Source of the DNA: Actinomycetes bacterium
Lineage (GTDB): Bacteria > Actinomycetota > Acidimicrobiia > Acidimicrobiales > JAJYXR01
Direction: 5' to 3'
Length of the DNA: 64,000 nt
Assembly (NCBI GenBank): GCA_021801795.1
Contig: JAJYXR010000007.1
Location: 5,048 to 69,047 of the forward strand
The notes under the pieces are model-generated. The model saw nothing but the letters and a program-made list of their open reading frames with translations. It was not told the DNA's origin and ran no database searches. The position numbers were made by a program, and so were the translations under genes. This document shows, one piece after another, positions 1 through 29,216 of this stretch (the first letter of the stretch is position 1; each line of letters begins with the position of its first letter).

Positions 1-1721
1 GGGTAGGCCACGAGGCTCCCCTGAGCAGAGGGGTCCACCACCGTCAGGTTCGCCACCACCGCGCTGGCGTCCGCAGGCACTCCCGCTAGGCCTGATACCT
101 GCACAGCGAGGGGGCTCGATGCAGAGAGGGTCTTTCCCTCGCAGTTCGCCAGCGCCGCGCCCGAGAGTCCCGAGGGGTTCCCAGCCCGGGTGTCGCATAT
201 GCGCGCTGGAGAGGAGAGCGCGAAGTAGGCAGGCGACGGGGCGGTGTAGCTGAACTCGGGAGCGCCCGATGAAGGCGAGGTGCCAGCCGGGGTTATCACC
301 TGCACGGCCACGCTCGTCCCGGCGATACCGGGCGGGCTCAGGGCGCTCACCTGGTCAGCCGAAACGTCCACCACATGGCTGGCGACACTGCCCCCGAAGA
401 GCACGTAGGCGGCGTTCTGCAGGTTCGTGCCGGTCAGGGTCACCGTGGTGCCGCCGCCGGCAGGCCCGGAGGTAGGCGTGATGGAGCTGACGGAAGCCGG
501 TGCCTGGAGGGGCGGCGGAACGGGGAAGGGGTCCGCGCTGTAGGCGACCGTGGTGTAGCTGCTGGAACTCGAAGAGCGCCCGACCACGTAGCAGGCGGTC
601 CCCGCGCAGGAGACGCCTGAGAGGTCCTTTATTCCAGAGGGCAGCATGCTCCCCTCGTTCGTCCAGGAGGTACCGCCATCGGTGGTGACGAAAATCTTCT
701 GATACCCATGACCCCGGTTACCGCCTCGGTCGCCGACAGCCACGCAGTCAGCCGAGCTCACGCACGACACGCTGGTGAGCCCGCCAGAGATATCGGGAAG
801 AGCAGGAAGATCGGAGGTGACCACCTGCCACGTCGATCCGTCCCATACAGCCACATACTGTGTCTGGGCATTGCCGTAGAAAGGATCATTAGGGCCGACA
901 GCCATGCAGAAGCTCGCGCTCGGGCAGTCGACCGCGTGGAAGAGCGCGTCGGCGGTCGCAGGCAGGCCATTCGAGGCAGCCGTCCAGGTCTGCCCGCCGT
1001 TCGTGCTGATCGCAGCCGCCGGAGCCGACGCGGCACCGCTCTGGCCCTTGCCGACCACCATGCAGGTGAGCCCCACGCAGGAGACCCCGCCCGTGTAGTC
1101 CATGGAGGGAGGTAGGTTCGACGTCTCGTCGACCCAGGTGGACCCAGAGTCGTCGGTGTATGCGACGGCCACGCCAGCGTCGAAGTCGCCAGTGGCCACG
1201 CAGGTCCCCTGGCTCGCGCACGAGACCGAGGTGAGCCCGTCGAACGAAGAGCTGAACGCGCTCGACAGCGCGCTCGACTCGTCAGTCCAGGTCGAGCCGT
1301 TCCAGACGTCGACCGCTCCCTGCGGACTAGAGCTCGTCCCGCCCACGGCAATGCACCAGGAGAGACCCGGCGTGCACCACACCGAGTGGATGAGGTACCC
1401 AGACAGAGTGCCCGCCGAGGACTCGTTCGTCCAGGTGGTGCCAGAGTTCGTCGTCTCGGCTGCCGCCGGATACCCGCCGGTCACCATGCAGGTGCTCTGG
1501 CTCGTGCAGGTGACTCCGTTCAGGTCACGGATATTGGGCGTGGACTGGAGCTGCCAGGTGACCGCAGCAGAGGCTGCAGAGCCGCCGAGCTGCTCTGCCA
1601 CGAAGGTCACGCCGCCCGCCAGCAGGCCGCCACAGGCTGCCGCCAGAGCGAAGCGGGCTAGACCCCGCCTCTTCCTGGAGGTGCCAGAACTTCCCCGCTC
1701 TCGGTCGCTGCTGTCTCTCAT
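1..1721 (-). CDS. Secreted 7-unit Asp-box (BNR-like) beta-propeller + IPT/TIG + 'RICDTR' module protein; the 3' end runs off the window start (partial)
   Basis: Absent from the ORF track because it has no in-window stop. Hand translation from ATG 1721-1719 (SD GGAGGA at 1728-1733, 6-nt spacer) is stop-free for 573 codons down to position 3. The N-terminus MRDSSDRERGSSGTSRKRRGLARFALAAACGGLLAGG is signal-like. Seven ~50-aa units carry Asp-box-like motifs (NSGTTW, NGSTW, DDSGSTW, TNGGQTW, DGSTW, TDGGTSW) and a Cys pair (V[ST]C...C.AVG). ITPTSGPAGGGTTVTLTGTNL is IPT/TIG-like. The last ~70 codons (PARICDTRAGNPSGL...) match the C-terminal module of the 9018-14978 protein. Confidence 0.8.
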   Translation of the reverse strand, partial: MRDSSDRERGSSGTSRKRRGLARFALAAACGGLLAGGVTFVAEQLGGSAASAAVTWQLQSTPNIRDLNGVTCTSQSTCMVTGGYPAAAETTNSGTTWTNESSAGTLSGYLIHSVWCTPGLSWCIAVGGTSSSPQGAVDVWNGSTWTDESSALSSAFSSSFDGLTSVSCASQGTCVATGDFDAGVAVAYTDDSGSTWVDETSNLPPSMDYTGGVSCVGLTCMVVGKGQSGAASAPAAAISTNGGQTWTAASNGLPATADALFHAVDCPSASFCMAVGPNDPFYGNAQTQYVAVWDGSTWQVVTSDLPALPDISGGLTSVSCVSSADCVAVGDRGGNRGHGYQKIFVTTDGGTSWTNEGSMLPSGIKDLSGVSCAGTACYVVGRSSSSSSYTTVAYSADPFPVPPPLQAPASVSSITPTSGPAGGGTTVTLTGTNLQNAAYVLFGGSVASHVVDVSADQVSALSPPGIAGTSVAVQVITPAGTSPSSGAPEFSYTAPSPAYFALSSPARICDTRAGNPSGLSGAALANCEGKTLSASSPLAVQVSGLAGVPADASAVVANLTVVDPSAQGSLVAY

Positions 1722-3103: not shown

Positions 3104-4231
3104 ATGACCAAGTCGCCCTCTGCCATCCGAGGCACCAGGCCATCGGCTGTCGCAGCTCGCTGGGCGAGCCTCGTGCTGACAGCCGGCCTGGTTCTCGCAG
3201 CCTGTTCGTCGGCTGCCGGCTCTGGCAGTACTCACCAGGTGAAGACAAGCCGGAGTGCCACCAGCGCACCTGCCAGAGCCGTCTCACCACGGCCTGGCAC
3301 TGCCGACGTGGCCTTCGCCGGGAGCCTGCTGGCCCTGGACAACGAGGTGATAGGCCCTGGCTTCGAGCGTGCGACTGGCTACGGCTACACGGGCCGTGGA
3401 GGAGGGTCCATCGGCCTTGCCCACGAGATAGCAGCCGGCGAGATAGCTCCCGATGTCTTCGAGAGCGTGGGGGCCTCGCCCATATCTGTCCTGGAGCCGC
3501 GTTTTGCCACCTGGTCGGTGCAGCTCGCATCGAGTCCCCTCGTGATCGCATATAACCCGCGCTCTCCCTACGCGTCGACGTTCCGCTCGGTCGCATCCGG
3601 GCACGCCCCGCTGTCGGACGCGTTCGAGGCGATGGCCTCGAAGGGATTCCTGCTAGGCCGCACGAACCCGGCCACGGATCCCCAGGGGCAGGCCTTCGTG
3701 ATGATGATGGAGCTTGCACAGAGCTACCTGCACCTGCCGGCGGGCACCGTGGAACGCATACTCGGAACGGGCATCGTGAGCGGCCAGGGCGGTAACGAGA
3801 GCCAGATCTTCTCGGAGACCTCCCTGGACGCCCACCTGGAAGCTGGCCAGCTCGATGCAGCCAGTGCGTTTCTCTCACAGGCAGTCCAGCTCCACCTCGC
3901 CTACCTGAGGCTCCCGGCGTCCATCGACCTGGGCGACCCAGCCTACGCCTCAGCGTATGCGAAGGCTCACCTGGTGGTTCCAGGCGCCACGCCGGGCACC
4001 ACCACCACGGTGCACGGGGCACCCCTGGTGATAGACGCCACCACCATCACCGAGCCAGGCCAGAGCGCTGCGGACCGCGCAGCCGCTGCTGCCTTCGTCG
4101 CCTACCTGGCCTCCGCGCCCGGTAGGTCCTCTTTCGCTAAGGAAGGATTCTCCCTGGTGCCGGAGACCATCGCGGGCGATCACCGCGATGTCCCCAGGGC
4201 CGTCACCCAGGCGGTGGACGGCGCGTCCTAA
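3104..4231 (+). CDS. Molybdate/tungstate-type ABC transporter substrate-binding lipoprotein (WtpA/ModA-like)
   Basis: Signal peptide with lipobox LAAC. DVAFAGSLLALDNEVIGPGFERATGY...GGSIGLAHEIAAGEIAPDVFESVGA and LASSPLVIAYNP follow the WtpA/ModA-like SBP pattern. It is immediately followed by the permease and ATPase genes. Confidence 0.75.
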   Translation: MTKSPSAIRGTRPSAVAARWASLVLTAGLVLAACSSAAGSGSTHQVKTSRSATSAPARAVSPRPGTADVAFAGSLLALDNEVIGPGFERATGYGYTGRGGGSIGLAHEIAAGEIAPDVFESVGASPISVLEPRFATWSVQLASSPLVIAYNPRSPYASTFRSVASGHAPLSDAFEAMASKGFLLGRTNPATDPQGQAFVMMMELAQSYLHLPAGTVERILGTGIVSGQGGNESQIFSETSLDAHLEAGQLDAASAFLSQAVQLHLAYLRLPASIDLGDPAYASAYAKAHLVVPGATPGTTTTVHGAPLVIDATTITEPGQSAADRAAAAAFVAYLASAPGRSSFAKEGFSLVPETIAGDHRDVPRAVTQAVDGAS

Positions 4232-4243
4232 GAGCCTGAGGGC

Positions 4244-5083
4244 ATGACCCCGGACGCTGCATTGCCCCCCTATGGCGCCAGCATGCAGCGTCGTGCCAGG
4301 GCATCCAACGTCGCTGCTCTGCTCGCATCGGTGGTGGTGTGGCTGGCGCTACTCGGACCGCTCGGCGCGCTGCTGGTCCACATCTCCCCCACGGCCACAC
4401 GCGAGGCCCTCGGCGCACCGGGAGCACTCACCCCTCTGGTGACCTCGGTGGAGGCCAGCCTCGTCGCGCTGGCGGTGCTGGTAGTGGCGGGTACTCCCCT
4501 CGCGTGGATGATGGCCCGGGAACGCCTGCCGCTCCCGCGCCTGGTGGAGGCCGGCGTGCTCGTCCCGCTTCTCATGCCGCCCCTCGTGATCGGCCTCCTG
4601 CTCGTCTTCTTCCTCGGCCCCGCCACGCCACTTGGCGGCGCGCTCTCGCACCTCCACCTCTCGGCCTCGAACACCTTCTTCGCTCTCGTGGTCGCCGAGG
4701 TATACGAGGCGGCTCCCTACTATGTCCTGGGTGCCCAGAGCGCTTTTGCCTCGGTGGCCGTGGAGCTCGAGGAGAACGCCGCGCTGCTCGGCGATCCGTG
4801 GCGCCGTACACTCAGGCGCGTAACGCTGCCCCTGGCCGCTCCGGGACTGGCCACGGCACTCGCCACCGGATGGGCGCGGGCCATAGGAGCCTTCGGTGCG
4901 GTCATAGTCATCGCCTACCATCCCTACGGCTTGCCCATGCAGATCTGGGTGACCCTCCAGCAGAGCGGGCTGGCTGCGGCCCTGCCATTCGCCCTGCTGC
5001 TGGTCTTGGTCTCGCTTCCCCTGCCTCTCCTGGCCTTTTCCTGGAGCGCCAGGTCCAGGGTCGGGACGCGGGTGGCGACATGA
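4244..5083 (+). CDS. ABC transporter permease (ModB/WtpB/CysT-like)
   Basis: Polytopic hydrophobic protein with an EAA-loop-like LEENAALLGDPWRRTLRRVTLPLAAPGL. It lies between the SBP and ATPase genes. Confidence 0.85.
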   Translation: MTPDAALPPYGASMQRRARASNVAALLASVVVWLALLGPLGALLVHISPTATREALGAPGALTPLVTSVEASLVALAVLVVAGTPLAWMMARERLPLPRLVEAGVLVPLLMPPLVIGLLLVFFLGPATPLGGALSHLHLSASNTFFALVVAEVYEAAPYYVLGAQSAFASVAVELEENAALLGDPWRRTLRRVTLPLAAPGLATALATGWARAIGAFGAVIVIAYHPYGLPMQIWVTLQQSGLAAALPFALLLVLVSLPLPLLAFSWSARSRVGTRVAT

Positions 5084-5090
5084 GCACGCT

Positions 5091-6287
5091 GTGCGACCGC
5101 GGGGAGCCCCTCGGGTGACCTCTGGGCTGGACGTAGACGTCCGGGTGACGAGAAGGCACTTCGAGGTCTGCGCTCGCTTCGAGGTGCCCCCAGGGGAAAG
5201 GTTCGGCCTATTCGGGCCTTCGGGGGCGGGGAAGTCGACGGTGCTCTCTGCCATCGCCGGGCTCGTCGGGATCGACTCCGGCAGGATCGTGCTCGCGGGA
5301 AGGGTCCTCTCCGCCGCTCCCGCCGCCCGGACCACGGCGCGAGCGCGGCGGTCCCGGTCGGCTGGGGCAGGTGCCTTCAAGGTGCCGCTCCACATGCGAA
5401 GGGTCGGCCTGCTGCGCCAGAACGCGGGCCTCTTCCCGCATATGACCGTGGCGGCGAACATCGGTTACGGAACGGATCCCTCCACCGAGGACTCCGCGCA
5501 TGCAGTAGGGCACGCCGCGCGACTGGTGGGGGTGGAGAACCTTCTCGACGCTCACCCAGGGGCACTCTCCGGCGGCCAGCGCCAGCGCGTGGCACTCGCC
5601 CGGGTGCTCGCCAGCCGCTTCGAGGTACTGCTCCTGGACGAGCCCTTCAGCGGCCTCGACAGTGCCCTGCGCGTACGCCTCGCATCCCTCACCGCCGAGG
5701 AGGTATCCAGCCGGGCCGTACCCGCGGTGCTGGTGACACACGACCTGGCCGAGGCCCAGTCCTTCTGCTCGCAGGTGGGCGTGATGGACAGGGGGGAACT
5801 GCTGCAGGTGGGAGATCCCCTGGAGGTCGTCCTGCGTCCGGCCAGCGTGCCAGTGGCCCGGATGGTCGGCTACCGAGCATTCGTCCCGCTGGCGACGACC
5901 CTCCCCGTGACGTTCCCTGCAGCCCCCGCCAGATCGCTCCCGCTAGGCTCGCCAGCCGCCGGCAAGCCGTTCACCAGGCCTGGCCCCAGCGCCCATTGCC
6001 TCGTCGGGCTCCACCCCGACAGGATCACCATGGTGGACGAGGCCGATGCTTCGACGGCGGGCATCTCGGGCGGGCTCCAGATAGGGGCACGGGTCGCATC
6101 CTGCAGACCCGCGGGGGCGGGGTTCGAGGTCGATGTCGCCACTCCAGACGGCTCCACCGTGCCCTGCAGGCTGCCGACCGGCAGGCAGGTGCCCCAGAAC
6201 GGCGACCCATGCACGATACTGGTCGTCGATCCGCCACTCTTCGACGGCGACGGCCGTGCCCGCCCCAGCCAGGGGATGGAGAGCTGA
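5091..6287 (+). CDS. ABC transporter ATP-binding protein with a C-terminal TOBE-like domain (ModC/WtpC-like)
   Basis: Walker A GPSGAGKST, signature LSGGQRQRVALAR, Walker B LLLDEP. The C-terminal ~120 aa form a beta-rich TOBE-like extension. Confidence 0.85.
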   Translation: MRPRGAPRVTSGLDVDVRVTRRHFEVCARFEVPPGERFGLFGPSGAGKSTVLSAIAGLVGIDSGRIVLAGRVLSAAPAARTTARARRSRSAGAGAFKVPLHMRRVGLLRQNAGLFPHMTVAANIGYGTDPSTEDSAHAVGHAARLVGVENLLDAHPGALSGGQRQRVALARVLASRFEVLLLDEPFSGLDSALRVRLASLTAEEVSSRAVPAVLVTHDLAEAQSFCSQVGVMDRGELLQVGDPLEVVLRPASVPVARMVGYRAFVPLATTLPVTFPAAPARSLPLGSPAAGKPFTRPGPSAHCLVGLHPDRITMVDEADASTAGISGGLQIGARVASCRPAGAGFEVDVATPDGSTVPCRLPTGRQVPQNGDPCTILVVDPPLFDGDGRARPSQGMES

Positions 6288-6326
6288 TGGAGGCCTCGCA
6301 GGTAACAGGACTACCGGCTCGATAGC

Positions 6327-7631
6327 GTGGCTCTCGTGAAGGATCTGAACGACACCGGTGGAGGGACCGACCCCGGGCGAGCCGACGGGACGCCATCGCG
6401 TGCAAGCCGTCTCAGGCTCGCACGCCTGGCGCGTGGCCTGTCCCAAGACCAGCTCGCCGCCATGTCGGGCGTGACACGCCAGGCCGTAGCGGGCCTGGAA
6501 GCCGGTCGTTGGGATCCTTCGCTGAAGGTGGCGCTGAGGATGGCAGCCGCGCTCGCTACGTCGGTGGAGTCCCTATTCGCGTCTCCCGGTGCTGGCGCAG
6601 AGATAGAGGCTGTGCTGATATCTGGTGGCTCGGCACCGGGAGCGCCCCATGACGGCGAAACGGGCCATGCAGCGCCGGAGGGTTCGGAGACTGGCAGGGT
6701 GCTCCTCGCCCGGATCGGCCAGAGGATCAACGCATTTCCCCTCCTCGGAGATGCTGCCACCGCGGGGGGGTTTCGCCCAGCGCATGGCTACGTAGTCTCG
6801 GGTGCCTCCCACGGCGACTCGCGTCCCAGTGGCGAAGTGGCGCCCACTGGTCCGTACAGGACCGTGGCGGTGCGCGCCAGTGGATCGGGCTCGCTGGCCG
6901 ACCCAGCTCATGGGGGGACTCCCGCCGCCCGCGTGGTCGCCATAGCGGGCTGCGATCCAGCCATACCCCTCCTGGCGGGGCCCCTCGGGACACTCGACCC
7001 CCCGGTGGAGCTCCTCTGGTGGTCCTGCTCCAGTATCCGTGCCCTCGAGCTGCTGGCCGCCGGAGCGGTGCACGCAGCCGGGATGCATGTACGTTCGGAG
7101 CCATCCCATTCGTACAACACGCCACTGGCGCGCACTCTCTTCGCGAGCGAGGGTGCCGAGGTCATCGGCTTCGCCTCCTGGCGGGAGGGTCTCGTCATGA
7201 GGACTGACCTCGCTGGTGCGGTCGAGACGGTAGCCGACATCGCCCGGCTGGAGGTCCCTATCGCCAATAGGGAGCCCGGCTCCGAAGCCCGCGCGGTCCT
7301 CGAGCGCGAGTGTGCACGCCACGGTGTCGACCCCTCGACCCTGAGCGGGTACCGCTCCACCGTACAGGGACATCTGGAGGTGGCCTCTGCCCTACGGGCG
7401 GGCCTTGCCGGTGCGGGGGTAGCCAGCGAGCCAGCGGCCAGGGTCTACGGACTCTCCTTCGTGCCCATCACCACCGAGCGCTACGACATGGTCATCAGGG
7501 CACGACAGGTCCATCTGCCCGAGGTCCAGGCCCTCATACATGCTCTCGGGGATCCCGCCCTGAGTGAGCAGCTGGACGCCTTGCCCGGATATGACGCCTC
7601 TGCCTGCGGAACAGTCTTCGACATCTTCTGA
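6327..7631 (+). CDS. XRE-type HTH regulator fused to a periplasmic-binding-protein-like (oxyanion-sensing) domain
   Basis: N-terminal LARLARGLSQDQLAAMSGVTRQAVAGLEAGRWDPSLKVALRMAAAL is an HTH_3/XRE pattern. The C-terminal ~250 aa are PBP-like (..IAGCDPAIPLL.., ..TTERYDMVI..). This architecture commonly accompanies tup/mod loci. Confidence 0.7.
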   Translation: MALVKDLNDTGGGTDPGRADGTPSRASRLRLARLARGLSQDQLAAMSGVTRQAVAGLEAGRWDPSLKVALRMAAALATSVESLFASPGAGAEIEAVLISGGSAPGAPHDGETGHAAPEGSETGRVLLARIGQRINAFPLLGDAATAGGFRPAHGYVVSGASHGDSRPSGEVAPTGPYRTVAVRASGSGSLADPAHGGTPAARVVAIAGCDPAIPLLAGPLGTLDPPVELLWWSCSSIRALELLAAGAVHAAGMHVRSEPSHSYNTPLARTLFASEGAEVIGFASWREGLVMRTDLAGAVETVADIARLEVPIANREPGSEARAVLERECARHGVDPSTLSGYRSTVQGHLEVASALRAGLAGAGVASEPAARVYGLSFVPITTERYDMVIRARQVHLPEVQALIHALGDPALSEQLDALPGYDASACGTVFDIF

Positions 7632-7695: not shown

Positions 7696-8919
7696 ATGCG
7701 CCGCGAGCCCCCCGTAGCCGACCAGGTCGATCCCGGGATCCAGACCGAGGCTCCCGAGGGGGTCCCTGACGGCGACACCGGTTCGACACCGCCATGGCCA
7801 CCCAGGATCGGCCGTAGAGGCTTTCTCGGCGCCATAGGCACCACCACTGCCCTCGCAGGCCTGGCGGCAGCGTGTGGAACGGCCTCGGAGTCAGGAGCGA
7901 GCAGAACTTCGCGCAAGGCCACACCGCCCACCGACCCACACCTCGTCAGGGTCGTGAGCGTGTACACGCCTTACCAGAGCGGGCTGCTCCCTGCTCTCGT
8001 GACACCATTCGAGTCGGCGGGCACCTACCGCGTCGACATCCAGGCTACGAACGACATCTTCGAGCCCGCCATGCACGGCCAGGCGGACCTCGTCGTCTGC
8101 CATTACGCCCACCGTGGCGTTCCAGGGCGTCAGGCAGGCCATCCTGGTGCCCGCCACGGCTCCGTGGTGCCCGGAAGCGGCGAGGGCGGAGGCCACGGTG
8201 GCGGTGGTGGTGGCGGTGGCGGTGGCGGTGGCCACGGTGGCGGTGGCCACCCTGGCGTAATACCTGGCAGCGGCGAGGGCGGCGGCCACGGTGGCCGTGG
8301 CAGCGCAGAGACCTCAGCTACGGCCTCACCCGCTAAGTCCGCTGAGATGACGACGAGCCGCTTCGTCCAGGAAGGCTTCGGCGAGTGGCCGGCCGCCCTG
8401 TTCTCGAACCAGGCACTCCTCCTCGGACCGCCCTCTGATCCGGCAGGCGTCCTCGGTCTTACGAGCGCCTACGAGGCGTTCGCCCGTATCGCCTCCACCG
8501 GCCAGCGGTTCCTCGCTGCGCCCGACGAGCGGATCAGCTACCTGAACGAGCTCCTGCTCTCCCTCCCAGGCATCACGAAGGGGTCCTGGTACGTCCCCAC
8601 GACGGCCGTAGGTGCCGCTCTCCTGGCACAGGCTGCCGACGAGGGGGCATACACGATGTGGGGAGACTCGAACGCCGCCCTCGCCACCGTAGCTGGCCAG
8701 CTGGTCCCCATGGTGACCACCGATCCGCTACTGCAGCGGCTGATGGTAGCCATCGTGGTGAACCCCGACACCGTGGCCGGGGTGAACTCACCAGGAGCCA
8801 TTGCCTTACAGTCATACCTCATCTCGGCTCCCGTGCAGGCGAAGGTCTACTCCTTCCGCGAACCAGGCTTCACCACGCCGACGTTCTGGCCTGCTGGCGT
8901 GAGCGACGTCATCACCTGA
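7696..8919 (+). CDS. TAT-signal lipoprotein, TupA-like binding protein with a His/Gly-rich insertion (paralog of 1845-2981)
   Basis: RRGFLG twin-arginine motif plus lipobox LAAAC. HLVRVVSVYTPYQSGLLPALVTPFESAGTYRVDI..GQADLVVCHYAH and ..LLGPPSDPAGV.. are TupA-like. An ~80-aa insertion (nt ~8110-8353) includes GGGHGGGGGGGGGGGGHGGGGHPGVIPGSGEGGGHGG. Confidence 0.7.
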   Translation: MRREPPVADQVDPGIQTEAPEGVPDGDTGSTPPWPPRIGRRGFLGAIGTTTALAGLAAACGTASESGASRTSRKATPPTDPHLVRVVSVYTPYQSGLLPALVTPFESAGTYRVDIQATNDIFEPAMHGQADLVVCHYAHRGVPGRQAGHPGARHGSVVPGSGEGGGHGGGGGGGGGGGGHGGGGHPGVIPGSGEGGGHGGRGSAETSATASPAKSAEMTTSRFVQEGFGEWPAALFSNQALLLGPPSDPAGVLGLTSAYEAFARIASTGQRFLAAPDERISYLNELLLSLPGITKGSWYVPTTAVGAALLAQAADEGAYTMWGDSNAALATVAGQLVPMVTTDPLLQRLMVAIVVNPDTVAGVNSPGAIALQSYLISAPVQAKVYSFREPGFTTPTFWPAGVSDVIT

Positions 8920-9017: not shown

Positions 9018-12000
9018 CTACTGGTACCAGCCCATGACGTCTGCGATGACGTCGGTGGTGCCGGAGAAGTTATAGATGGTCACCGTGCCGGTGGAGCTGA
9101 GCGTGGCGATCACCAGGTTCGCCGTCGTGGCCCCCATCGTCCAGTTCAGGTCCGAAGCCGTCGGCGGAGTACCCGTACCTGGGTAAACCGTCAGGTAGCC
9201 ACCCGTGCTGGTGTTCGTAGCCGTCACGTTCAGCACGACCGCGGTGGCCGTCTTCGGCACGTTCGCCAGACCGGCGACAGTGACCGTGATGGTCTTGCCC
9301 GATCCCACGGTACCGATCGAGGCATTCGCAGTCGGGATGGCCTCACTGGAGCAGTAGCTCGGCGCGTGGCTGGCAGCGCACCTGGTGTCTAGGATGCGAA
9401 CCGGCGCGGGCTCGGCGTTGAACTGTGCGCCGGTGGCGCTCGAGCTGGCTGCGGTGAAGTAGCCGTCGACGTCCACCAGGGCGTCGGTGGTCACATCACT
9501 CACCAGGTTGATCGTCCCGCTGGAGCTCACCGGCACGATCACCCGGTTCGGCACCGCACCCTCGCCCATGTGGAAGTTCACGTTCGATACCAGGGGAGGC
9601 GTGGTGATGCTCCCCGGGTAGGCGGTGAGGTATCCACCACTGGAGTATCCGACTGCCGTCAGGTTCAGCACCACGGCGGTCACACCCGAGCTGGGTATCC
9701 CACCGTTACCGGTGACCTGCACGCTGAGCGGCGTGTTCGGTGCGAGCGTCTTGCCATTGCACTGAGCATCCGCACCGGTGAGGTTCGACGGGTTACCGGA
9801 CCTGGTGTCGCAGATGCGGGCCGGGGCCGAGAGGCCGTTGTAGAGGCCCTGGCCGGCAGCGCTCGGCACCGAGTAGTAGCCCTCGACGTCCACGATGATG
9901 TCCGTGGAGGTGTCAGCCGAGATGGCCACCTGGCCGTTCGTGCCCACACCCACCTCCACCAGGTTGGCGACGGCGTCGCCGGCCTTGAAGTTCAGGTTCG
10001 AGGTGCTGGGCTGGCTCGCACCGGCAGGGTACACCGTCACGAATCCACCGGTCGCCTCGTTCGCAGCCGTCACGTTCAGCACGACCGCCGAGACGCCCGA
10101 GGTGGGCACACCTCCGATACCGGCGACCGTCACGTCCAGCGGGCTGCTCGACGTGAGCTGGGTTCCGGAGTTGGCGCACTGGCCGGTCACCCCAGAGGTC
10201 ACGTCACCCGTGCCACCGATGCTCGCAGCGGAGCGCGTGTCGCAGATACGGGTGGGCGTGAGGGCCGTGTAGGCAGCCTCGTAGGTGAACTGGTCACCGC
10301 TCACGATACCGCTGGTGAGGCTGTTCACGGTAACCGTGACGTTCACCGTGCCGGTCATCTGAGCAGGCGAGACCACCGTGATCGAGGTGGAGGACACGAC
10401 GGTCACGCTGGTGCCGGCCACGGTGCCGAAGTCCACCGTCGCACCCGAGCTGAACCCGGATCCGGTGATGGTCACCGTGGTGCCACCAGCAGTCGACCCA
10501 ACAGTCGGGCTGATGCTGGTCACCACCGGAGCGGGCGGCGCAGACAGGGTGTAGGTACCGCTGGTAGCTGCTATCAGGTCTGCAGAGGTGCTCACCTGCA
10601 TGGTGTCAGTACCGGCCGGCGGGTTCGTCACGCTGGCTATCGACAGCGTCACGGCCGTCGAGTCTGCTATGGCCACAGGCGTGGTGATGGTCACGGTGGC
10701 GGTGCCACCTCCGGTCACCGTCGTCGCCGCGGCCCCGGCGCCACCACTAGGCGTCACCACGTAGTCCGATGCGGCCGACGGGAACGCTGTCCCCGTCGGA
10801 CCCGCCAGGACGATGGTGCCCGTGCCTGCCACCAGCGCACCGCTGGCACTGGTGGTGAAGTCCACCGTGTAGCTGGCAGACTCCGTGCCCACTGCAGGGC
10901 TCACCGTCACGCTCGGGCAGGCCGCGACGCCGGTCGCACAGGTCGTGGTGTCCGGACCAGTCACCGTCGAACCGATGGTGTAGCTGGAGGTGGCCACAGG
11001 AGCCGTGTCCGACGAGGTGTTCACGCTCAGCGTGTAGTTACCAGACGGCGGGTTCGTGACACCGCTGATGGTGAGCGCAACCGAACCACCCGCAGCCACG
11101 GACACCGGAATGTCCACGGTCGCCTCGTTATCGGTGCTCGAGCCGTTCGTGGCACTCAGCGATGGCGTCACGGTCGCAGCGGTGCTGTTGAACACGTAGT
11201 CGCTCGCCGTGGAAGGCATGGTCGTGCCAGGAGGAGCGTCGATGGTCACCGAACCCACAGGGGAGCTGGTCGTGCTCAGTGCACCGGTGGAGCTGGTCAC
11301 GAAGTCCAGCGTGTAGACAGCGTTGGTAGCTGCCTCCGTGGCTGGAGTCGGGCTCGGCCCGGTCAGCTTGCTGATCTCACTCCCAGTCGCGAAGGTCGGT
11401 GACGCCGCAGGAACGGTGTCGGCCGAGGTCGAGACCATGAGCTCGTTCGAGGTGCTCGCTGGCGGGTTCGTGGCACCGGAGATCACGACGATCACCGGAG
11501 CGCTGTCACCCACCGAGACCGGGATGGTGATCACCGCGCTGTTACTCGTAGCGCTCACCTTCGCAGCAGCCATGCCGTTCACGGTGTAGTCGCTGGCTGC
11601 ACTCGGCATGGTCATGCCAGCAGGCCCCGTGATGGTGATGGTGCCGGTGCCCGCCACGAGCGCACCAGTGGAGCTGGTGTCGAAGCTCACCGCGTACTCC
11701 GCGGGGCTACCGCCCGCCAGCGACGGGTTCGGGTTCGTCGTTATGTAGGGGAAGCTCGAACTCCCGGACGGGAGAGCCACGGATCCCACTGACGTCCCGA
11801 TCGAGTACTCGCTCGTCGTCACCGGGTCGGCGTCAGTCGACGTGAAGAGGCTCGCCGTGTAGGTCGTACCAGACGTCGGGTTAGTCGCTCCCGTGATAAC
11901 CAGCGAGGTGGGAGTGCTCGGCGAGATGTTCGTACCAACCGTCACCACCGCACAGTCACCGCTGGTGCAGGTAGGCGTCGGGGAGCTTATGAGGCTCACG

Positions 12001-14978
12001 CTATAGGCGGCGACACCACCGACTGTGTAGTCGGTGACCGCGCTGGGCAGGGTCGTGCCGCTCGGTACCACCACGGTAACCGTGCTCGTATCGCTTACCA
12101 GGTTGTAAGTGCTGCCCGATGCAGTCGCCGAGCTCGTGGTGAAGCTGAACGTGTACTTCGCGCTCTGCGAAGCGCTGGCGGGGTTTATCGACAGATCCAG
12201 GCTGCTCACCGCGGTCGGAGTGCTCACCGTATTGAAGGGCGTCACGGCCGCAGGCGCCGGGTCGGCCGAGGTGGAGACGCCAGCGGTGTAGTCACTCGTC
12301 GCGACGGCTGGGTTCGTCGTGTCGTTCACGTTCACGGTAACCGGTGCATCCGCGTTGATCGTCACCGGGGTGGTGATGATCGCGCATGGGGTCGAGCAGG
12401 TCGACGGGTCCACCGATACGGTCGAGGCCTCGACGCCGTTCACGACGTACAGGGCGGCAGTGCTCGGGAAGATCGTGGTCGCCGTGGACGTGATCGTGAT
12501 CGTGCCATTACCCGCAGTCAGCCCACCGGTGGAGCTGGTCGTGAAGGTGAAGTCGTACTGGCCAGGGGTGAAGCCCGCGTAGTCGTTCGGCTCCTGGCTC
12601 AGCTGATCGAAGCTCACCGACGTGGTCGGCGTGCCGATCACGTAGTAGCTGCTGTCGACCACGGCGGTGTCGTCTGTGCTCGTCACCACCGTCCCGACGT
12701 AGTTCCCGGCCGAGGGGTTCGTCGATCCGCCGATGACGACCGTCACCTGACCATTAGGCGTGACGTTGGCCGGAGAGGTGATGACCAGGTCATCGGTGCC
12801 AAGCCCCGAGAGGTCGCCCGAGGGCACCGGGATCCCGTTCACCGTGACAGTCGCGCCGCTCGATCCGAGAAGCGTGCCAGCAGTAGCCGTGATGGTGATG
12901 GTGCTGGAGCCACCCACGAGGTTGTACGTGGTGTTACCCGAGGCGAACTGGCTGCTCGTGGTGAACTGCACCGTGTAGGTGACACCCGCGGCATCGGCCA
13001 GGGAAGAGCTCGGGCTGAAGCTGACGCCCGAAACCTCGTTCGACGGTGCAGCCACGATCGGGTAGTAGCTGGTGGTCGCGGTGGCCTTGTCAGACGACGT
13101 GCTCACGCTGAGCTGGTCACCCGATCCTGTGCTCGCGGCTGGGTTCGTCACGTCGTTGATCGTTACCACCACGTCGGTGGAGTTCCCGATGGCCGCAGGC
13201 GTGACGATGGTGACTTCGTTCGACCCGCCGCCGGTGACCGCCGTGGCGATCGGGGCCGCCGTGGGCGTGCCGTAGAGCGAACCCTGGCTGATCGTGTAGT
13301 CACCGGTAGAGGTGGGGAACACCGTGCCGCTCGGCGCGTCGATGCTGATCGAGCCTGATCCGGCTGCCAGTGCTCCGGTCGAGCTGGTCTCGAAGGCCAC
13401 CTGGTATACGGTCGGGGCACCGGCGATATCCGATCTCATGGTCACCGTCTGGCTCGACACGGAAGAGTAGATGGTGTAGTTGCCGCTCGTGACCGGCATG
13501 AGGTCGGACGAGGTGAAGACCGTGACGGTGTCGTCCACGCTGGACGTGGTCGGGTTCGTCACGTTGCTCACGATGAGGTTCACAGCGGTGGAGGCCGCGA
13601 TGCTCTGTGAGATCGAGACTACGGCGGTCGAGGCAGTAGAGGTTCCACAGGTCACGCTGGTGCCCGCGGAGTTCTCACAGGCCACGGAGCTCGCTGTGGC
13701 CTGGCTCACGGAGTAGTCGCTTGCCGCTGCGGGGAAGACGGTACCGGCAGGTGCCTCCACCGTGATCGACCCGACTGGCGAACTCGAGCTGCTGAGCGCC
13801 CCAGAGGCGCTGGTGGTGAAGCCGATGCCGTAGGTGGCCGTGGTGACGCCAGTGCCGTTAGGCGTGGGGTTCCCAGCCGTGGCCGTGGTGACGCCGGAGC
13901 TGGTGGCCGTGGAGCAGCAGACCACCTTCGTGACTGCGGTCGGAGCGGCCGCGATGGTGTAGGTCTCACCGCTGCCGAAGGTCTCGGTCTTCGTGTCGGA
14001 GGAGGTGCTGATGGTGAGCGAGTCGGTGGACCCGCTGGCAGTGGCGGCGGGGTTCGTCACGCCGCTCACGACCACGTCCACGCTCCCGTCCGCCGGTATG
14101 GCCACGGGGGTGGTGATCGTCGCAGTATCCGTACCGCCACCGCTCACGGTCGATGCAGCGACGCCGTTCACCACGTAGTCACTGGCACTCGACGGGAAGA
14201 CGGTGCCCGTGGGCGCTGCCACGGTGATGGTGCCGCTGGCGGCTGCTAGGGCGCCGGTGGCCGGGGGGCTGGTGACCACAGCGCTGGTGGTGAAGGTGAA
14301 TGCGTAGGTAGCCGCAGACCCTGCGTAGTCCGGGCTCGGGTTGCCAGCAGCGGGCAGGCCGGTGCTGGCACTGATCGAGCAGCACACACCGAGGGTCACC
14401 TGCCCCGGAGGGGCGGTGAGGGTGTAGGAGGGTATGACTGCCGGGACCGTGTCGGCCGAGGTGGCCACGGTGGCGGTCGTGTAGGTGCCCGGGGTCGACG
14501 GGTTCGTCACGCCGTTCACCACGACGGTGACGGCGGTGCTGGCGGCGATGCTGGCGGGCACCGTGATGGTCACGGTGCTGGCGGTGCCGACCGTGCTGGA
14601 GTTACTGACCGTGGGACTGGCACTAACCACGGTGCCGTCCACGGTGTAGGCGTTCGCGCTGGATGGGAACACCGTCCCGGTCTGTGGAGACGCCGCCTGG
14701 GGACCGGGAAAGCTGAGGGTGATGGTGCCGGTTCCACCCGCGAGCGCGCCGGAGCTGCTCGTGGTGAAGCCGACGGTGTAGACCGATGTTGCGCTGGTGG
14801 TCGCAGGGTTGGCCGCGGGGCCGCTCACGCTCGTCACCGAGGTGCCGGTGGCGAAGGCCGTACCCGCGCCGAGGAAGGGCACGACGGCCAGTGCGGCTAC
14901 GAGCGCGGTGGCGCTGGCGCGCAGAGCACGCCGGATGCCTCTGGGTGTTATGGCCGTGCGAGTGGTCTCGCTGTTCAC
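9018..14978 (-). CDS. Giant secreted Thr/Ser/Val/Ala-rich repeat protein (~1986 aa): ~10 tandem ~145-aa units, one IPT/TIG domain, three C-terminal 'RICDTR' modules; candidate S-layer or surface glycoprotein
   Basis: The longest ORF reaches 15203, but GTG 14978 has SD GGGAGGA (14987-14993, 8-nt spacer) and opens directly into a signal peptide (..RRALRASATALVAALAVVPFLGAGTAFA). Ten units share ..Y.V.FTTSS.GAL..G.GTIT...P.GT.FPS...DY.V........VTNP... The IPT/TIG domain (ISPTVGSTAGGTTVTITGSGF) lies at ~10270-10545. The three RICDTR/RILDTR modules occupy 9018-10265. Confidence 0.85.
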   Translation of the reverse strand: MNSETTRTAITPRGIRRALRASATALVAALAVVPFLGAGTAFATGTSVTSVSGPAANPATTSATSVYTVGFTTSSSGALAGGTGTITLSFPGPQAASPQTGTVFPSSANAYTVDGTVVSASPTVSNSSTVGTASTVTITVPASIAASTAVTVVVNGVTNPSTPGTYTTATVATSADTVPAVIPSYTLTAPPGQVTLGVCCSISASTGLPAAGNPSPDYAGSAATYAFTFTTSAVVTSPPATGALAAASGTITVAAPTGTVFPSSASDYVVNGVAASTVSGGGTDTATITTPVAIPADGSVDVVVSGVTNPAATASGSTDSLTISTSSDTKTETFGSGETYTIAAAPTAVTKVVCCSTATSSGVTTATAGNPTPNGTGVTTATYGIGFTTSASGALSSSSSPVGSITVEAPAGTVFPAAASDYSVSQATASSVACENSAGTSVTCGTSTASTAVVSISQSIAASTAVNLIVSNVTNPTTSSVDDTVTVFTSSDLMPVTSGNYTIYSSVSSQTVTMRSDIAGAPTVYQVAFETSSTGALAAGSGSISIDAPSGTVFPTSTGDYTISQGSLYGTPTAAPIATAVTGGGSNEVTIVTPAAIGNSTDVVVTINDVTNPAASTGSGDQLSVSTSSDKATATTSYYPIVAAPSNEVSGVSFSPSSSLADAAGVTYTVQFTTSSQFASGNTTYNLVGGSSTITITATAGTLLGSSGATVTVNGIPVPSGDLSGLGTDDLVITSPANVTPNGQVTVVIGGSTNPSAGNYVGTVVTSTDDTAVVDSSYYVIGTPTTSVSFDQLSQEPNDYAGFTPGQYDFTFTTSSTGGLTAGNGTITITSTATTIFPSTAALYVVNGVEASTVSVDPSTCSTPCAIITTPVTINADAPVTVNVNDTTNPAVATSDYTAGVSTSADPAPAAVTPFNTVSTPTAVSSLDLSINPASASQSAKYTFSFTTSSATASGSTYNLVSDTSTVTVVVPSGTTLPSAVTDYTVGGVAAYSVSLISSPTPTCTSGDCAVVTVGTNISPSTPTSLVITGATNPTSGTTYTASLFTSTDADPVTTSEYSIGTSVGSVALPSGSSSFPYITTNPNPSLAGGSPAEYAVSFDTSSTGALVAGTGTITITGPAGMTMPSAASDYTVNGMAAAKVSATSNSAVITIPVSVGDSAPVIVVISGATNPPASTSNELMVSTSADTVPAASPTFATGSEISKLTGPSPTPATEAATNAVYTLDFVTSSTGALSTTSSPVGSVTIDAPPGTTMPSTASDYVFNSTAATVTPSLSATNGSSTDNEATVDIPVSVAAGGSVALTISGVTNPPSGNYTLSVNTSSDTAPVATSSYTIGSTVTGPDTTTCATGVAACPSVTVSPAVGTESASYTVDFTTSASGALVAGTGTIVLAGPTGTAFPSAASDYVVTPSGGAGAAATTVTGGGTATVTITTPVAIADSTAVTLSIASVTNPPAGTDTMQVSTSADLIAATSGTYTLSAPPAPVVTSISPTVGSTAGGTTVTITGSGFSSGATVDFGTVAGTSVTVVSSTSITVVSPAQMTGTVNVTVTVNSLTSGIVSGDQFTYEAAYTALTPTRICDTRSAASIGGTGDVTSGVTGQCANSGTQLTSSSPLDVTVAGIGGVPTSGVSAVVLNVTAANEATGGFVTVYPAGASQPSTSNLNFKAGDAVANLVEVGVGTNGQVAISADTSTDIIVDVEGYYSVPSAAGQGLYNGLSAPARICDTRSGNPSNLTGADAQCNGKTLAPNTPLSVQVTGNGGIPSSGVTAVVLNLTAVGYSSGGYLTAYPGSITTPPLVSNVNFHMGEGAVPNRVIVPVSSSGTINLVSDVTTDALVDVDGYFTAASSSATGAQFNAEPAPVRILDTRCAASHAPSYCSSEAIPTANASIGTVGSGKTITVTVAGLANVPKTATAVVLNVTATNTSTGGYLTVYPGTGTPPTASDLNWTMGATTANLVIATLSSTGTVTIYNFSGTTDVIADVMGWYQ

Positions 14979-15130
14979 GTGGAGTGTCCTCCCTGTGTCG
15001 TTGTTCGGATACGCCTGGCGGCCCGACCCTTCGTTTATTTCCTGAGACACCGCTCGAGCCTTTCTCTCTCCGCTTCCGGCGTGCATTGACGCCCCGATCA
15101 TTGCCTGTGCGATCCCCGGATGCACGTCAG

Positions 15131-15155
15131 CCGGCTGGGAGGTCTTCCCAGCCGG
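15131..15155 (-). promoter_or_regulatory. Perfect 10-bp stem-loop in the putative long 5' leader of the giant gene
   Basis: CCGGCTGGGA (15131-15140), loop GGTCT, TCCCAGCCGG (15146-15155). It lies ~150 nt upstream of the GTG at 14978. Its role is inferred only. Confidence 0.2.
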
Positions 15156-15394
15156 TCGGCTCGATCCGGTTCCTTCTTCATTTCTATTGCCTTCGAATCG
15201 CACGTCACAACCTCAATCGTCGTGGGATGCCGGACCGTTACGACCCTGCCCCGTCTAACGCCTGTACACGTCTGCCCGCGAAGTCGCGGGATCGGCGGAA
15301 CCTTACGCGTGCCAGCAGGTCGTGTCAAGCACCGTCGGTGAAACTGCCAGCGTGGTCGTAGCGCCAGAGGCACATCCGTGCGAGAATCCCACCG

Positions 15395-16798
15395 ATGTCG
15401 CCTGGAGGATCGTCCGAGAAGTCCGCCGAGAGGTCGTCCCTGGCGGCTGGGTCCTATGGGTTCGAGCACGGCCTGGTGGCGGTGATCGGCCAGGGGCATA
15501 TCGGTCTCACGCTAGCACTGCGAGCTGCCGAGGTGGGCTTTGGCGTGGTCGGCTACGACATCGACGAGCGGTTGGTGAAGGAGCTCGGGAGCTTCGTGAA
15601 GCCTGCTGGCGGTAAGGCTTTCGAGGTGGGCGCAGATGCATCCGGAGCCCCTCGGTTCAGGGTGGCTGCAGCCCTCGACGGCGTGGACCCGGCCCGCCTG
15701 GCCGCGGTGCTCTCCTCGGGTGCCTACTCGGCGACCGCAGATCCTGGTGACCTCGAAGGCTTCGACATAGGGGTGCTCGCCGTCCCCACGCCGCTCGACG
15801 ATTCGGGTGTCCCCGATCTGGACCCGATGCGCGCAGGTGCACGCCTCCTCGGCACCCACCTGCACCCTGGGGCAGCCGTTTCGGTGGAGTCCACGCTCTA
15901 TCCTGGCGCCACCGCCTCGGTGGTGATCCCTGCGCTCGAGTCGGCCTCGGGTCTGGTCGCCGGGCGGGATTTCCATGTCGGCTACAGCCCCGAGCGCATA
16001 GACACGGCCGGTGGCGAGTTCGGGTTCGAGAACACCCCGAAGCTGGTATCCGGTATGGACGCGGCCTCCCTCGCTGCTCTCTCAGGCTTCTACCGGAGGC
16101 TCGTCGAGACGGTGGTGGAGGTTCCCGGCATGGCCGAGGCCGAGATGGCCAAGGTGGTCGAGAACACCTTTCGCCATGTGAACGTGGCCCTGGTGAACGA
16201 GCTGAACCTGGTGGCGCGCTCGCTCGGAGTGGACCTCGGCGTGGCACTCGAGGCCGCTGCGACCAAGCCGTTCGGGTTCATGCCCTTCAGGCCGGGCCCA
16301 GGTGCGGGAGGTCGCTGCCTGGCAGGGGCGGCAGGATATCTCTCCTGGGCCGCACGCGAGGCGGGCGCGGGCGCTCTGACCCTGGTGGACGCAGCGACAG
16401 CCCTGAACGAGTCGATGCCCGCCCGGGTGGCGGCGCGCGTCGAGACGGGCCTGGCCGAGCGCTCCATGACCATGGCCGGTGCTTCCGTGCTGCTCGTCGG
16501 CCTCGCGTACAAGCCCGGGGTCTCCGAGACGAGGGGCTCCGCGGCCGTGGCGGTGGCGAACCTGCTGGCAGTGGCAGGCGCCAGGGTGGCGGCGGCAGAT
16601 CCGCTGGTCGGTGACTGCCCGGGTCTGCACGACTCGGTGGAGCGGGTCGAGCTCAGCCCCGACGAGGTCGCGAAGGCCGATGCGGTGGTGCTCCTGGTGG
16701 ACCATCCCGGACTGGACCTCGACACCCTGGTCGCGAGCGCTCGGTGGCTGCTGGACACCCGAGCGAGGCTCCGGGGACCCAGAGTCGAGTACCTCTGA
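15395..16798 (+). CDS. Nucleotide-sugar dehydrogenase (UDP-glucose/GDP-mannose dehydrogenase family)
   Basis: N-terminal Rossmann motif VAVIGQGHIGLTLALRAAEVGFGVVGYDID. Central GYSPERID..ENTPKLVSG, AKVVENTFRHVNVALVNE and PGPGAGGRCL (catalytic Cys region) are typical of the family. Confidence 0.85.
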   Translation: MSPGGSSEKSAERSSLAAGSYGFEHGLVAVIGQGHIGLTLALRAAEVGFGVVGYDIDERLVKELGSFVKPAGGKAFEVGADASGAPRFRVAAALDGVDPARLAAVLSSGAYSATADPGDLEGFDIGVLAVPTPLDDSGVPDLDPMRAGARLLGTHLHPGAAVSVESTLYPGATASVVIPALESASGLVAGRDFHVGYSPERIDTAGGEFGFENTPKLVSGMDAASLAALSGFYRRLVETVVEVPGMAEAEMAKVVENTFRHVNVALVNELNLVARSLGVDLGVALEAAATKPFGFMPFRPGPGAGGRCLAGAAGYLSWAAREAGAGALTLVDAATALNESMPARVAARVETGLAERSMTMAGASVLLVGLAYKPGVSETRGSAAVAVANLLAVAGARVAAADPLVGDCPGLHDSVERVELSPDEVAKADAVVLLVDHPGLDLDTLVASARWLLDTRARLRGPRVEYL

Positions 16799-16825
16799 TC
16801 CGACCGTAAGCCGCGTCCCCAGTTT

Positions 16826-18103: not shown

Positions 18104-18293
18104 GGCCGCAAGCTAGCCGAGCTCCAGCCACTGCCTGTATCTCTCACCACGGCAAAGCTCCCCGCCCGCTGCATAGAGATAGCCCGCGTCGACGAAGATG
18201 GCGCTGCGGTCCATGCCGCAGATCGAGAGCAGAAGGGGCCCCCTTGCAAGAGCCACGCCGGCCATCCCAGGGCAACCGGCTCTTCAGCCTGGC

Positions 18294-20762: not shown

Positions 20763-20993
20763 GCCGGTCTCGTCCTCGGCGCGAGCCCTCCTGACCTCGA
20801 TGCGGACGGGGCAGCGCAGCCGCATCCCAGCCAACGGGTGCTCCCCGCTACAGGACGCGATCCACGTTCGGGTGGCCGCTCGCTCATCGCGTCAGTCTCT
20901 CCCAGGGAGACTGCTGCTGCCAGCGAGCGTCCAGCGCGCCATCCACCTCCGGGGCCTAGTCTTTGGCATCAGAACCAGACGAGCCGAGCGCAC

Positions 20994-22172: not shown

Positions 22173-22220
22173 GCGGCCGGCAGCTCGCGATCCCGTGGCG
22201 ATGCCGCCGGGCCGAGTGGG

Positions 22221-26325: not shown

Positions 26326-26349
26326 TGCGTCATGGTAGCCCGCGGCCGG

Positions 26350-27141: not shown

Positions 27142-27155
27142 GTCATCGTGACACA

Positions 27156-28499: not shown

Positions 28500-28567
28500 C
28501 TGGCGAGCACGGGCACCGTCCCCCGGCCACTGATGCTCAGATCTATATCACTGAAGGTCAGGGCCCG

Positions 28568-28924: not shown

Positions 28925-29216
28925 CTCCGCCGAGCGAACCGCCGCCCGAGCCGAGGAGTCCGCAGGAGGAGAGAAGACCGGCTAGCGACACCACGAACAA
29001 CATGTGGCGCAACGCCACGGCCGCACGGCGCGCCGAACGGTCCCGATCCTGCCCCCCATCGGGAAGCAAAGCTAGCGGGTGCAGTGGCTTGGTGCTGCGA
29101 GGACCCGCTCCTCGGGTCCGTTGTGCGCACGACTTCGACCACCACTGCAAGGAAACGGAAAGAAACGGGACGCCAGGCTGTCTGGCCCCGGACAGATCGG
29201 TTAGCGTTGGGCGGCG

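Follow-up and report, generated by a model that had tools for sequence, protein, structure and literature searches.

A terminal triplet of all-beta modules in secreted proteins of Acidimicrobiia and their relatives: a candidate head for retention on the cell envelope

Introduction

What purpose could be served by three diverged copies of one unnamed module at the very end of a giant secreted protein? The question is raised by a 64,000-nucleotide stretch of DNA from an Actinomycetes bacterium of the order Acidimicrobiales (assembly GCA_021801795.1, contig JAJYXR010000007.1, positions 5,048 to 69,047 of the forward strand), called the window below. An open reading frame (ORF) at 9018-15203 (-) of the window translates into a giant protein of 2061 residues, whose last 417 residues are three tandem modules of ~135 residues that reach the C-terminus. 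An initial annotation, made from the letters of this DNA, had pointed out the three copies, compared them with the SLH triplets of S-layer proteins and supposed an envelope-anchoring or glycan-binding role. We find that the triplet is the conserved unit of a very large family of secreted proteins and that it is predicted to fold as one rigid body. In the reading that we favour, to which we give a probability of roughly 0.4, the triplet is a terminal, three-lobed binding head, probably for a glycan, that most likely retains secreted passengers non-covalently on the envelope of the cell that produces them.

The triplet is the unit of a large family

Each copy in the giant protein is recovered by a three-copy hidden Markov model (HMM) at an E value near 1e-61 (Table 1), within a few codons of where the initial annotation had placed it. 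The stop codon (9018-9020) comes immediately after module 3, and the final residue of the protein is the final residue of the module. By alignment, the modules of the giant protein are 43-47% identical to copy 1 and 42-47% identical among one another; the residues invariant in all three (P, R, D-T-R, V.V.G, P, AVV.N.T, G and Y) fit the RI(C/L)DTR-type pattern that had been proposed for them. Profile matches also bear out two further claims, namely that a second protein, truncated by the edge of the window, enters the same module (at residue 499, window 227) and that the module directly follows an IPT/TIG domain in both proteins.

How common is this arrangement? We scored a single-module profile against 1.84 billion cluster representatives (50% identity) and obtained 38,856 clusters at E <= 1e-3, with 13,250 at E <= 1e-30. 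Exactly three copies were present in 118 of the 120 best matches of a word-indexed search and in 114 of 126 further cluster representatives, the rest of which had six (4), nine (2), five (5) or four (1). In a less biased sample, 80 loci recovered with single-module peptide patterns, three copies were found in 61 of the 77 called genes, and several of the one- or two-copy genes are cut by contig ends. In 100 of the 126 representatives the triplet ends at or within a few residues of the C-terminus; elsewhere it stands directly after the signal peptide or is internal. The family is built on triplets rather than on single modules, and its usual form is the terminal triplet first seen in the giant protein.

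The three copies are not interchangeable. For 565 of 609 modules, the nearest module in another protein occupies the same position of the triplet, and each position has its own signature across the 609 (the signatures are those listed for the three copies in Table 1). This grouping by position, together with the signatures, points to a triplication that is old and to a triplet that appears to move between genes as one block, shuffled whole.

Some relatives carry one module only. In the protein that we call L081 (5890-8055 (+) of a 126-kb IMG/VR contig) a signal peptide is followed by one module, a long Pro/Thr linker, a GH16 domain, a second Pro/Thr linker and a phosphoesterase (PF04185). Its layout resembles that of enzymes with a carbohydrate-binding module (CBM) and argues for a possible role in substrate or surface targeting. 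The contig may be the flank of a prophage rather than true phage DNA. A second group consists of small secreted proteins of Actinomycetota, including metagenome-assembled genomes (MAGs) of Streptosporangiaceae and Pseudonocardiaceae; it is represented by P0255 (L082 5812-6915 (+)) and its relatives P0256-P0300. These proteins of ~310-345 residues have one module or a degenerate version of it, then an uncharacterised Cys-containing C-terminal domain of ~150 residues (G-V-G-Q-x-W-I-N-T-K ... H-Y-D). In a few members the two parts are separated by a collagen-like G-X-Y run, and shorter relatives consist of G-X-Y and the C-terminal domain only. We considered collagen-like trimerisation as a general trait of single-module relatives and set it aside, G-X-Y being present in only 2 of 25 (L082/P0255 and P0313); the feature is suggestive only.

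Does the module have a name? The initial annotation knew of none, and this holds for Pfam-A (2025 copy), NCBIfam 20.0 and PHROGs, in which the module has no match. For homologues that are little more than the triplet, no family is entered in the precomputed Pfam column, and source annotations call the homologues 'hypothetical protein' or name them for a partner domain. A Peptidase_C41 match (E = 0.01) falls under the family cut-off and is treated as chance. Sequence and profile searches of PDB chains gave nothing credible beyond two marginal partial matches, to an alphavirus nsP2 helicase (E = 1.5e-3, single query) and to an archaeal flagellin (E = 1.5e-3, profile query); both cover only the 'GVP..AVVLNVT' stretch, and we reject them as chance.

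The families that might have been expected were absent too. SLH (PF00395, whose repeats of ~55 residues carry W, GIIxG and TRAE motifs) has no Pfam match at E <= 1 in the window proteins or at E <= 0.1 among the 25 families listed for the 80 triplets, CWB2 (PF04122, including its P-I-L-L motif) matches neither the window proteins nor the 80 triplets, and C1q (PF00386) and TNF (PF00229) have no profile match at E <= 1 in the window proteins. The IPT/TIG profile (PF01833) matches the upstream domain and never the modules themselves. Kinship with S_layer_C (PF05124) was rejected: the match is to one six-module protein (P0122), at 35 bits summed and with no single significant stretch, and S_layer_C is neither among the 25 families listed for the 80 triplets nor in the window proteins. 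A full-text literature search for the motif, under the spellings tried, returned no paper that mentions it, and the phyla that carry the module lie outside the coverage of a 2025 preprint on S-layer evolution. The fold, the sequence family and the putative single-chain pseudo-trimer design are not in the libraries or papers searched; terminal triplets that many secreted proteins share for tethering or targeting are, as a kind, already known.

Three jelly-roll modules in one rigid body

AlphaFold2, run on the 416-residue triplet with 79 homologues, gave a model with a mean predicted local distance difference test (pLDDT) of 93.9, a predicted template-modelling score (pTM) of 0.92 and a pLDDT of 88-89 in the linker blocks. 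A pTM this high across three domains means that their mutual arrangement is confidently predicted, and the three modules are modelled as one rigid body, not as beads on a string. Module 2 alone (pLDDT 96.2) is predicted as an all-beta jelly-roll of eight strands and one short helix. Both models are all-beta apart from short helical turns, and the helical, three-pronged spindle of SLH domains was not found in them.

What does this fold resemble? With the whole triplet as query, Foldseek returned no match with a template-modelling score (TM) above 0.2, as expected if the counterparts are multi-chain trimers, since the library is made up of single chains. The 'triple jelly roll' of STIV A223 (4ind), Cry, Vip3 and GH101 came up as candidates and were rejected as long, poor alignments. 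With a single module as query, the matches are weak but agree in their direction. The best in the PDB is the trimer-forming tip of the Bdellovibrio Bd2133 fibre (8ond, 8ok3; TM 0.46-0.50, E = 4e-4), and further neighbours are the BclA and F-BclA heads, the C-terminal domain of Pgp3, nucleoplasmins, small capsid proteins and a phage cement protein that is a trimer. In the set of predicted viral structures the module finds uncharacterised phage proteins (TM up to 0.64, root-mean-square deviation 3.3 Å), DUF2793, tail-fibre and C1q-domain proteins. The initial annotation had advised looking for carbohydrate-binding folds. CBM6 and CBM35, beta jelly-rolls like the module, rank low (TM 0.29-0.38), and a CBM-like fold attached to a glycoside hydrolase is not what the triplet turned out to be. 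From the company of trimeric tips we infer a threefold arrangement of the three lobes, by which the modules would reproduce in one chain what domains of the fibre-tip type normally do as three chains.

Conservation is concentrated in a set of residues that all positions share. At least 95% of the 609 modules keep P9, R11, D14, T15, R16, P52, N62, T64, P78, P84, S87, N90, N99, G109, D124 and G127. If the lobes carried three equivalent polar sites of the sort usual in sugar binding, invariant Arg, Asp, Asn, Ser and Thr in each of them would be expected; a structural role is equally conceivable for some of these residues. A Cys pair at columns 13 and 30 is conserved at 79% and 87%, respectively, the first being the Cys of 'RICDTR' and its partner lying ~17 positions later, and it fits an extracytoplasmic location. 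In module 3 of the giant protein the pair stands at columns 17 and 30 (CAASHAPSYC, 'RILDTRCAASHAPSYC') in place of the usual Cys13-Cys30 ('RIC...QC'), which looks like a swapped disulfide inside the same loop. The same alternative occurs at position 2 in a subset of homologues.

Secreted partners and their bearers

The partner domains of the triplet are all extracellular in type. TIG is the commonest and lies directly upstream; the others include fn3, He_PIG, Big_3_5, PKD, the sedolisin pro-domain, matrixin, peptidase A4, subtilase, purple acid phosphatase, GH43, CAP, propellers of the Kelch, RCC1, BNR and NHL types, RHS repeats and an ice-binding-like domain. Glycosidases make up a small minority (GH43 in 2 of 47 proteins, GH16 in the one viral-contig protein). 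By a crude rule, 84 of 125 proteins have signal-peptide-like N-termini, and the earlier supposition that the module belongs to secreted proteins agrees with both results. In two proteins, P0159 and P0234, RHS/YD repeats or a YD-repeat-like start lie upstream of an internal TIG domain and triplet, which are followed by ~320-340 residues. Such sequences suggest that the triplet may also be used in polymorphic-toxin-like proteins.

Other means of attachment were sought in the same proteins. Among 24 inspected proteins with the triplet away from the extreme C-terminus, none has an LPXTG-like motif in the last 60 residues and none showed a C-terminal hydrophobic tail in the printed ends. The giant protein contains no lipobox.

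By their labels, the 80 loci comprise 31 of Acidimicrobiia class, 29 from unspecified Actinomycetes or Actinomycetota MAGs, 9 of Dormibacterota, 3 of Chloroflexota and 8 others. Several MAGs contribute 3-6 loci each to the 80 that were kept, and one contributes at least 6. Cultured Streptomyces, Kitasatospora and Streptacidiphilus have proteins made of a signal peptide, ~200 residues and a C-terminal triplet; cultured carriers include Kitasatospora kazusensis and strains of the Streptomyces sp. NBC_01351 or NBC_01232 type. A phage origin, with the triplet as the wall-binding domain of an endolysin, was considered and rejected: 50,697 GenBank phage records gave 0 matches and IMG/VR only 3 loci.

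The locus

The giant protein consists of a ~1,400-residue stalk, a TIG domain and the terminal triplet (Table 1). Its gene probably starts at GTG 14976-14978, not at the listed GTG at 15203, and would then encode ~1986 residues. A GGGAGGA Shine-Dalgarno sequence lies 7-8 nt upstream of the inner GTG (-), and with this start the signal peptide (RRALRASATALVAALAVVPFLGAGTAFA) falls at the N-terminus. The stalk is rich in T (19%), S (16%) and A (13%), with recurring F-T-T-S, F-P-S and V-T-N-P motifs, and its sole Pfam match is a weak one to DUF2808 (E = 3e-13). DUF2808 is also seen in other triplet proteins.

Table 1. Features of the two module proteins in the window
Feature	Window position (strand)	Residues	Evidence	Remarks
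Module 1, giant protein	9867..10271 (-)	1645-1779	three-copy HMM, E = 8.7e-61	position-1 signature N-L-V-E-V, E-G-Y
Module 2, giant protein	9450..9845 (-)	1787-1918	three-copy HMM, E = 2.2e-62	position-2 signature N-R-V-I-V-P
Module 3, giant protein	9021..9425 (-)	1927-2061	three-copy HMM, E = 8.9e-62	position-3 signature S-D-L-N-W, I-Y-N-x-x-G, G-W-Y
IPT/TIG domain, giant protein	10281..10529 (-)	1559-1641	Pfam PF01833, E = 2.5e-16	directly upstream of module 1
Thr/Ser/Ala-rich stalk, giant protein	10539..14846 (-)		motif spacing, composition	~ten repeats of ~135-165 aa
Probable start and signal peptide, giant protein	14850..14978 (-)		read from sequence	GTG 14976-14978; signal peptide ...RRALRASATALVAALAVVPFLGAGTAFA / TG
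Partial module, second protein	3..227 (-)	from 499	HMM, E = 8.7e-19	first 75 residues, profile positions 2-79
IPT/TIG domain, second protein	246..494 (-)	410-492	Pfam PF01833, E = 1.2e-11	directly upstream of module
Signal-peptide-like N-terminus and Cys-pair repeats, second protein	495..1721 (-)		translation	S-C-x5-C-x-A/V-G

When the three-copy HMM was run over the six frames of the window, only one other ORF matched, the edge-cut 3-1721 (-); the window thus has two triplet-module genes within 15 kb. The Cys-pair repeats of this second protein (S-C-x-S-x3-C-x-A-V-G ... W) match Sortilin/BNR below threshold only and are likely to fold as a beta-propeller. The repeat type looks uncatalogued. 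It recurs on either side of the triplet in many proteins (P0125, P0129, P0135, P0144, P0236), which makes it a favoured partner.

A glycan-assembly cluster of ~19 kb (15395-34150) begins 190 bp from the giant gene and is divergently transcribed. It contains a UDP-glucose/GDP-mannose dehydrogenase, six GT4-type glycosyltransferases and one of GT2 type, a GT34-like protein of 846 residues, a sulfotransferase (20622-22172), a TagO/WecA/MraY-family enzyme (PF00953, 31209-32276) and an NAD-dependent epimerase/dehydratase; the product may be an envelope glycopolymer that is sulfated and linked to a lipid. No pyruvyltransferase is present among the annotated genes of the window. The gene of one homologue adjoins Wzy_C, Wzt/Wzm and glycosyltransferase genes.

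Between the two module genes, 3104-7631 (+) encodes an ATP-binding cassette (ABC) importer (SBP_bac_11, BPD_transp_1, ABC_tran) followed by a regulator with HTH_3 and PBP_like domains. The importer layout resembles those for molybdate, tungstate or sulfate uptake and has no evident tie to the module genes. Five ORFs of 245-483 residues have no Pfam match at E <= 1e-3, namely 1845-2981 (+), 7696-8919 (+), 18198-19649 (+), 28421-29704 (+) and 29821-30558 (-), and two of them flank the region of the giant gene. ORF 18198-19649 (+), which has the GT34-like ORF overlapping it on the other strand, may be no real gene.

How the triplet may act

How might such a body work? We propose that the three beta jelly-roll modules fold into a single-chain pseudo-trimer, each lobe of which would bear the same invariant polar cluster (R11, D14, T15, R16, N62, T64, S87, N90, N99 and D124 in profile numbering). 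The three-lobed body would form a terminal, multivalent binding head whose ligand would be polymeric and most likely a glycan. In these single-membrane (monoderm) bacteria, the head would bind a wall-linked glycopolymer and hold its passenger on the cell's own envelope; the passenger would be the stalk and TIG domain in the present case, and a protease, phosphatase, GH43, CAP or beta-propeller elsewhere. Such a strategy would be that of SLH and CWB2 triplets, executed with an unrelated all-beta fold. It is from the architecture that we infer glycan binding and the cell's own wall as target: a near-obligatory triplet of non-equivalent repeats that forms one body, as for SLH and CWB2, placed at either terminus, common to many unrelated extracellular proteins and enzymes of a genome, and found without another anchor in the proteins inspected.

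SLH domains anchor proteins non-covalently to wall polysaccharide (PMC6081394, PMC4973711). Like SLH triplets, the modules are three tandem, non-identical, terminal repeats in one body, with an approximate threefold symmetry that is presumed for the modules; each repeat has a conserved Arg-containing motif (TRAE in SLH, D-T-R in the module), and the triplet is common to many surface proteins or enzymes of one organism. The differences are equally plain. SLH repeats have ~55 residues and are helical, building a spindle on a three-helix bundle, whereas the modules have ~135 residues and are all-beta; ligand binding is proven for SLH and putative for the module triplet; and no pyruvyltransferase or other dedicated partner gene was found near module genes. 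What stands of the likeness that the initial annotation saw is its functional logic, to which we can add the rigid packing, position-specific repeats as in CWB2 (PMC4973711), a terminal place with diverse passengers and the lack of a visible LPXTG or membrane anchor in the inspected proteins; kinship in sequence or fold does not stand.

The CWB2 repeats of the Cwp proteins of Clostridioides difficile offer a second comparison. They form obligatory triplets, are non-identical and not interchangeable, occur in 29 paralogues fused to proteases, adhesins and wall-modifying enzymes, and bind an anionic wall polymer whose synthesis locus adjoins the cwp genes (PMC4973711). Here too three tandem, non-equivalent repeats act as one unit that may be N- or C-terminal, and in the window a polysaccharide cluster adjoins the giant gene, which at first sight recalls the setting of CWB2 and PSII. 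The parallel is one of analogy only: sequence and fold are unrelated, and binding by the module triplet is putative, unlike that of CWB2.

Several observations weigh against retention on the producer's envelope. Polysaccharide genes are no general neighbours of the module family: glycan-assembly genes lie within 6 kb at only 11 of the 80 related loci, and 7 of those matches are generic ABC ATPases. Nor did we find a recurrent neighbouring gene family, since all-against-all clustering of the flanking ORFs gave only alternate-frame shadows of the module genes, and two of three other looked-up loci have no glycan-type genes. We have for these reasons not counted gene context as evidence and have rejected a general link between the triplet and wall-polymer genes. 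The structural similarities are weak (Foldseek E of ~1e-4 to 1e-5, TM 0.43-0.64 and 8-17% identity among the top ten of each search), and the neighbours that they reveal are distal adhesive tips, not wall anchors. Single-module proteins exist, L081 among them. A sortase is present in at least one related genome, so that covalent anchoring is not lacking in these lineages, and secreted enzymes need not stay on the cell at all. Thus the first idea of an anchoring or glycan-binding module is plausible, and the SLH/CWB2-type architecture has strengthened it; what has not followed is support from polysaccharide genes, and the nearest folds, those of fibre-tip adhesins, point equally to a head that faces outward.

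Such an outward head is the alternative that survives best, and we regard it as possible, if rather doubtful. The triplet would be an adhesin or lectin, borne by a stalk at its free end or by an enzyme that is secreted freely, and would bind foreign or environmental ligands such as detritus, polymers of plants or fungi or the glycans that other microbes make, much as do the tips of phage tail fibres and of the Bdellovibrio MAT fibre, the BclA head or a CBM. All structural neighbours that can be recognised are in fact distal binding tips or jelly-rolls of CBM type. The Bd2133 tip forms a trimer that has a pocket at the interface, and in related TNF-like tips GlcNAc is bound between the protomers (PMC10769870). 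Trimeric tips (Bd2133 MAT, BclA/F-BclA, Pgp3, phage tail-fibre, DUF2793, C1q) share with the module their size, their jelly-roll or beta-sandwich class and a C-terminal place on a long stalk, and the stalk and terminal domain of the giant protein have the layout of a fibrillar adhesin. Unlike the triplet, with its three diverged copies in one chain, these tips are homotrimers of three chains packed round an axis; they face away from the producing cell, and no sequence-profile match links the module to C1q or TNF. The likeness to jelly-roll CBMs (CBM6, CBM35) is of the same mixed kind. These too are small beta jelly-rolls on secreted enzymes with conserved polar and aromatic residues, L081 has one module with Pro/Thr linkers, GH16 and a phosphoesterase, and GH43 partners exist; the fold match is poor, and a fixed, position-specific triplet is foreign to CBMs. 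The lack of a general link to wall-polymer genes speaks for an outward head as well. Against it, stalk proteins would be left with no visible means of staying on the cell (no LPXTG-like motif or hydrophobic tail in the 24 inspected, no lipobox in the giant protein), and among the partners proteases, phosphatases, CAP and propellers predominate over glycosidases, which is unusual for a substrate-targeting CBM. Moreover, the putative binding residues are near-invariant over ~39,000 clusters and three positions, which suits one conserved ligand better than diversified adhesin tips.

It is unlikely that the triplet is instead an assembly module, making protein-protein contacts that would cap or nucleate fibres, drive oligomerisation or build a surface lattice displaying the passengers. 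Jelly-roll trimers are classic assembly units, as in capsids, cement proteins, nucleoplasmin and the nucleation of BclA trimers; the body is predicted to be rigid, many paralogues have one module type in common, and a few single-module relatives carry collagen-like G-X-Y segments. A single-chain pseudo-trimer would, however, already satisfy its own trimer interfaces, and conservation is highest at polar residues (R, D, T, N, S) rather than in the hydrophobic patches that a protein interface would be expected to have. The collagen-like segments are confined to the 2 of 25 single-module relatives mentioned above, and the weak S_layer_C match to one protein, without recurring in the 80 triplets. 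Least probable of all is a helper for export, folding or sorting that is recognised or removed in secretion or maturation, like the pre-peptidase C-terminal domains of secreted proteases or those of sorting systems. An extreme C-terminal place in ~80% of proteins, common to many unrelated secreted proteins of one genome, is a hallmark of sorting tags, and several partners are proteases with pro-domains. But no known sorting tag comes near the size of ~400 residues in three specialised, strongly conserved folded domains; the triplet is also met inside proteins, right behind the signal peptide and in sets of six or nine copies; neither a processing enzyme nor any other gene family recurs in the neighbourhood; and the proteins have ordinary N-terminal signal peptides.

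Implications

About 39,000 clusters at 50% identity carry a domain for which we found no Pfam, NCBIfam or PDB entry and no paper, in lineages abundant in soil, peat and freshwater and in relatives of Streptomyces. If the triplet is a head for surface retention or glycan binding, it would annotate the extracellular and surface proteome of Acidimicrobiia, Dormibacterota and Chloroflexota and would point to a conserved ligand in their envelopes. Its compact and rigid body, in effect a trimer in a single chain, would also be a scaffold usable for surface display. Since cultured Streptomyces and Kitasatospora have members of the family, such a role is open to direct test. For evolution, the predicted structure offers a case in which a fold of homotrimer type may have been fixed as three specialised copies in one chain.

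We tentatively go a step further and envision that the triplet could be a third, structurally independent route to non-covalent surface display in single-membrane bacteria, beside SLH and CWB2. It would be an all-beta, single-chain pseudo-trimer made of jelly-rolls like those of fibre tips, would serve as the main display handle of Acidimicrobiia, Dormibacterota and Chloroflexota, in use in Streptomyces as well, and would read a conserved wall glycopolymer through three D-T-R/N/D sites. Should this idea hold, the list of triplet proteins would be the surface proteome of these lineages, which are for the most part uncultured, and the module itself a probe for their wall polymer.

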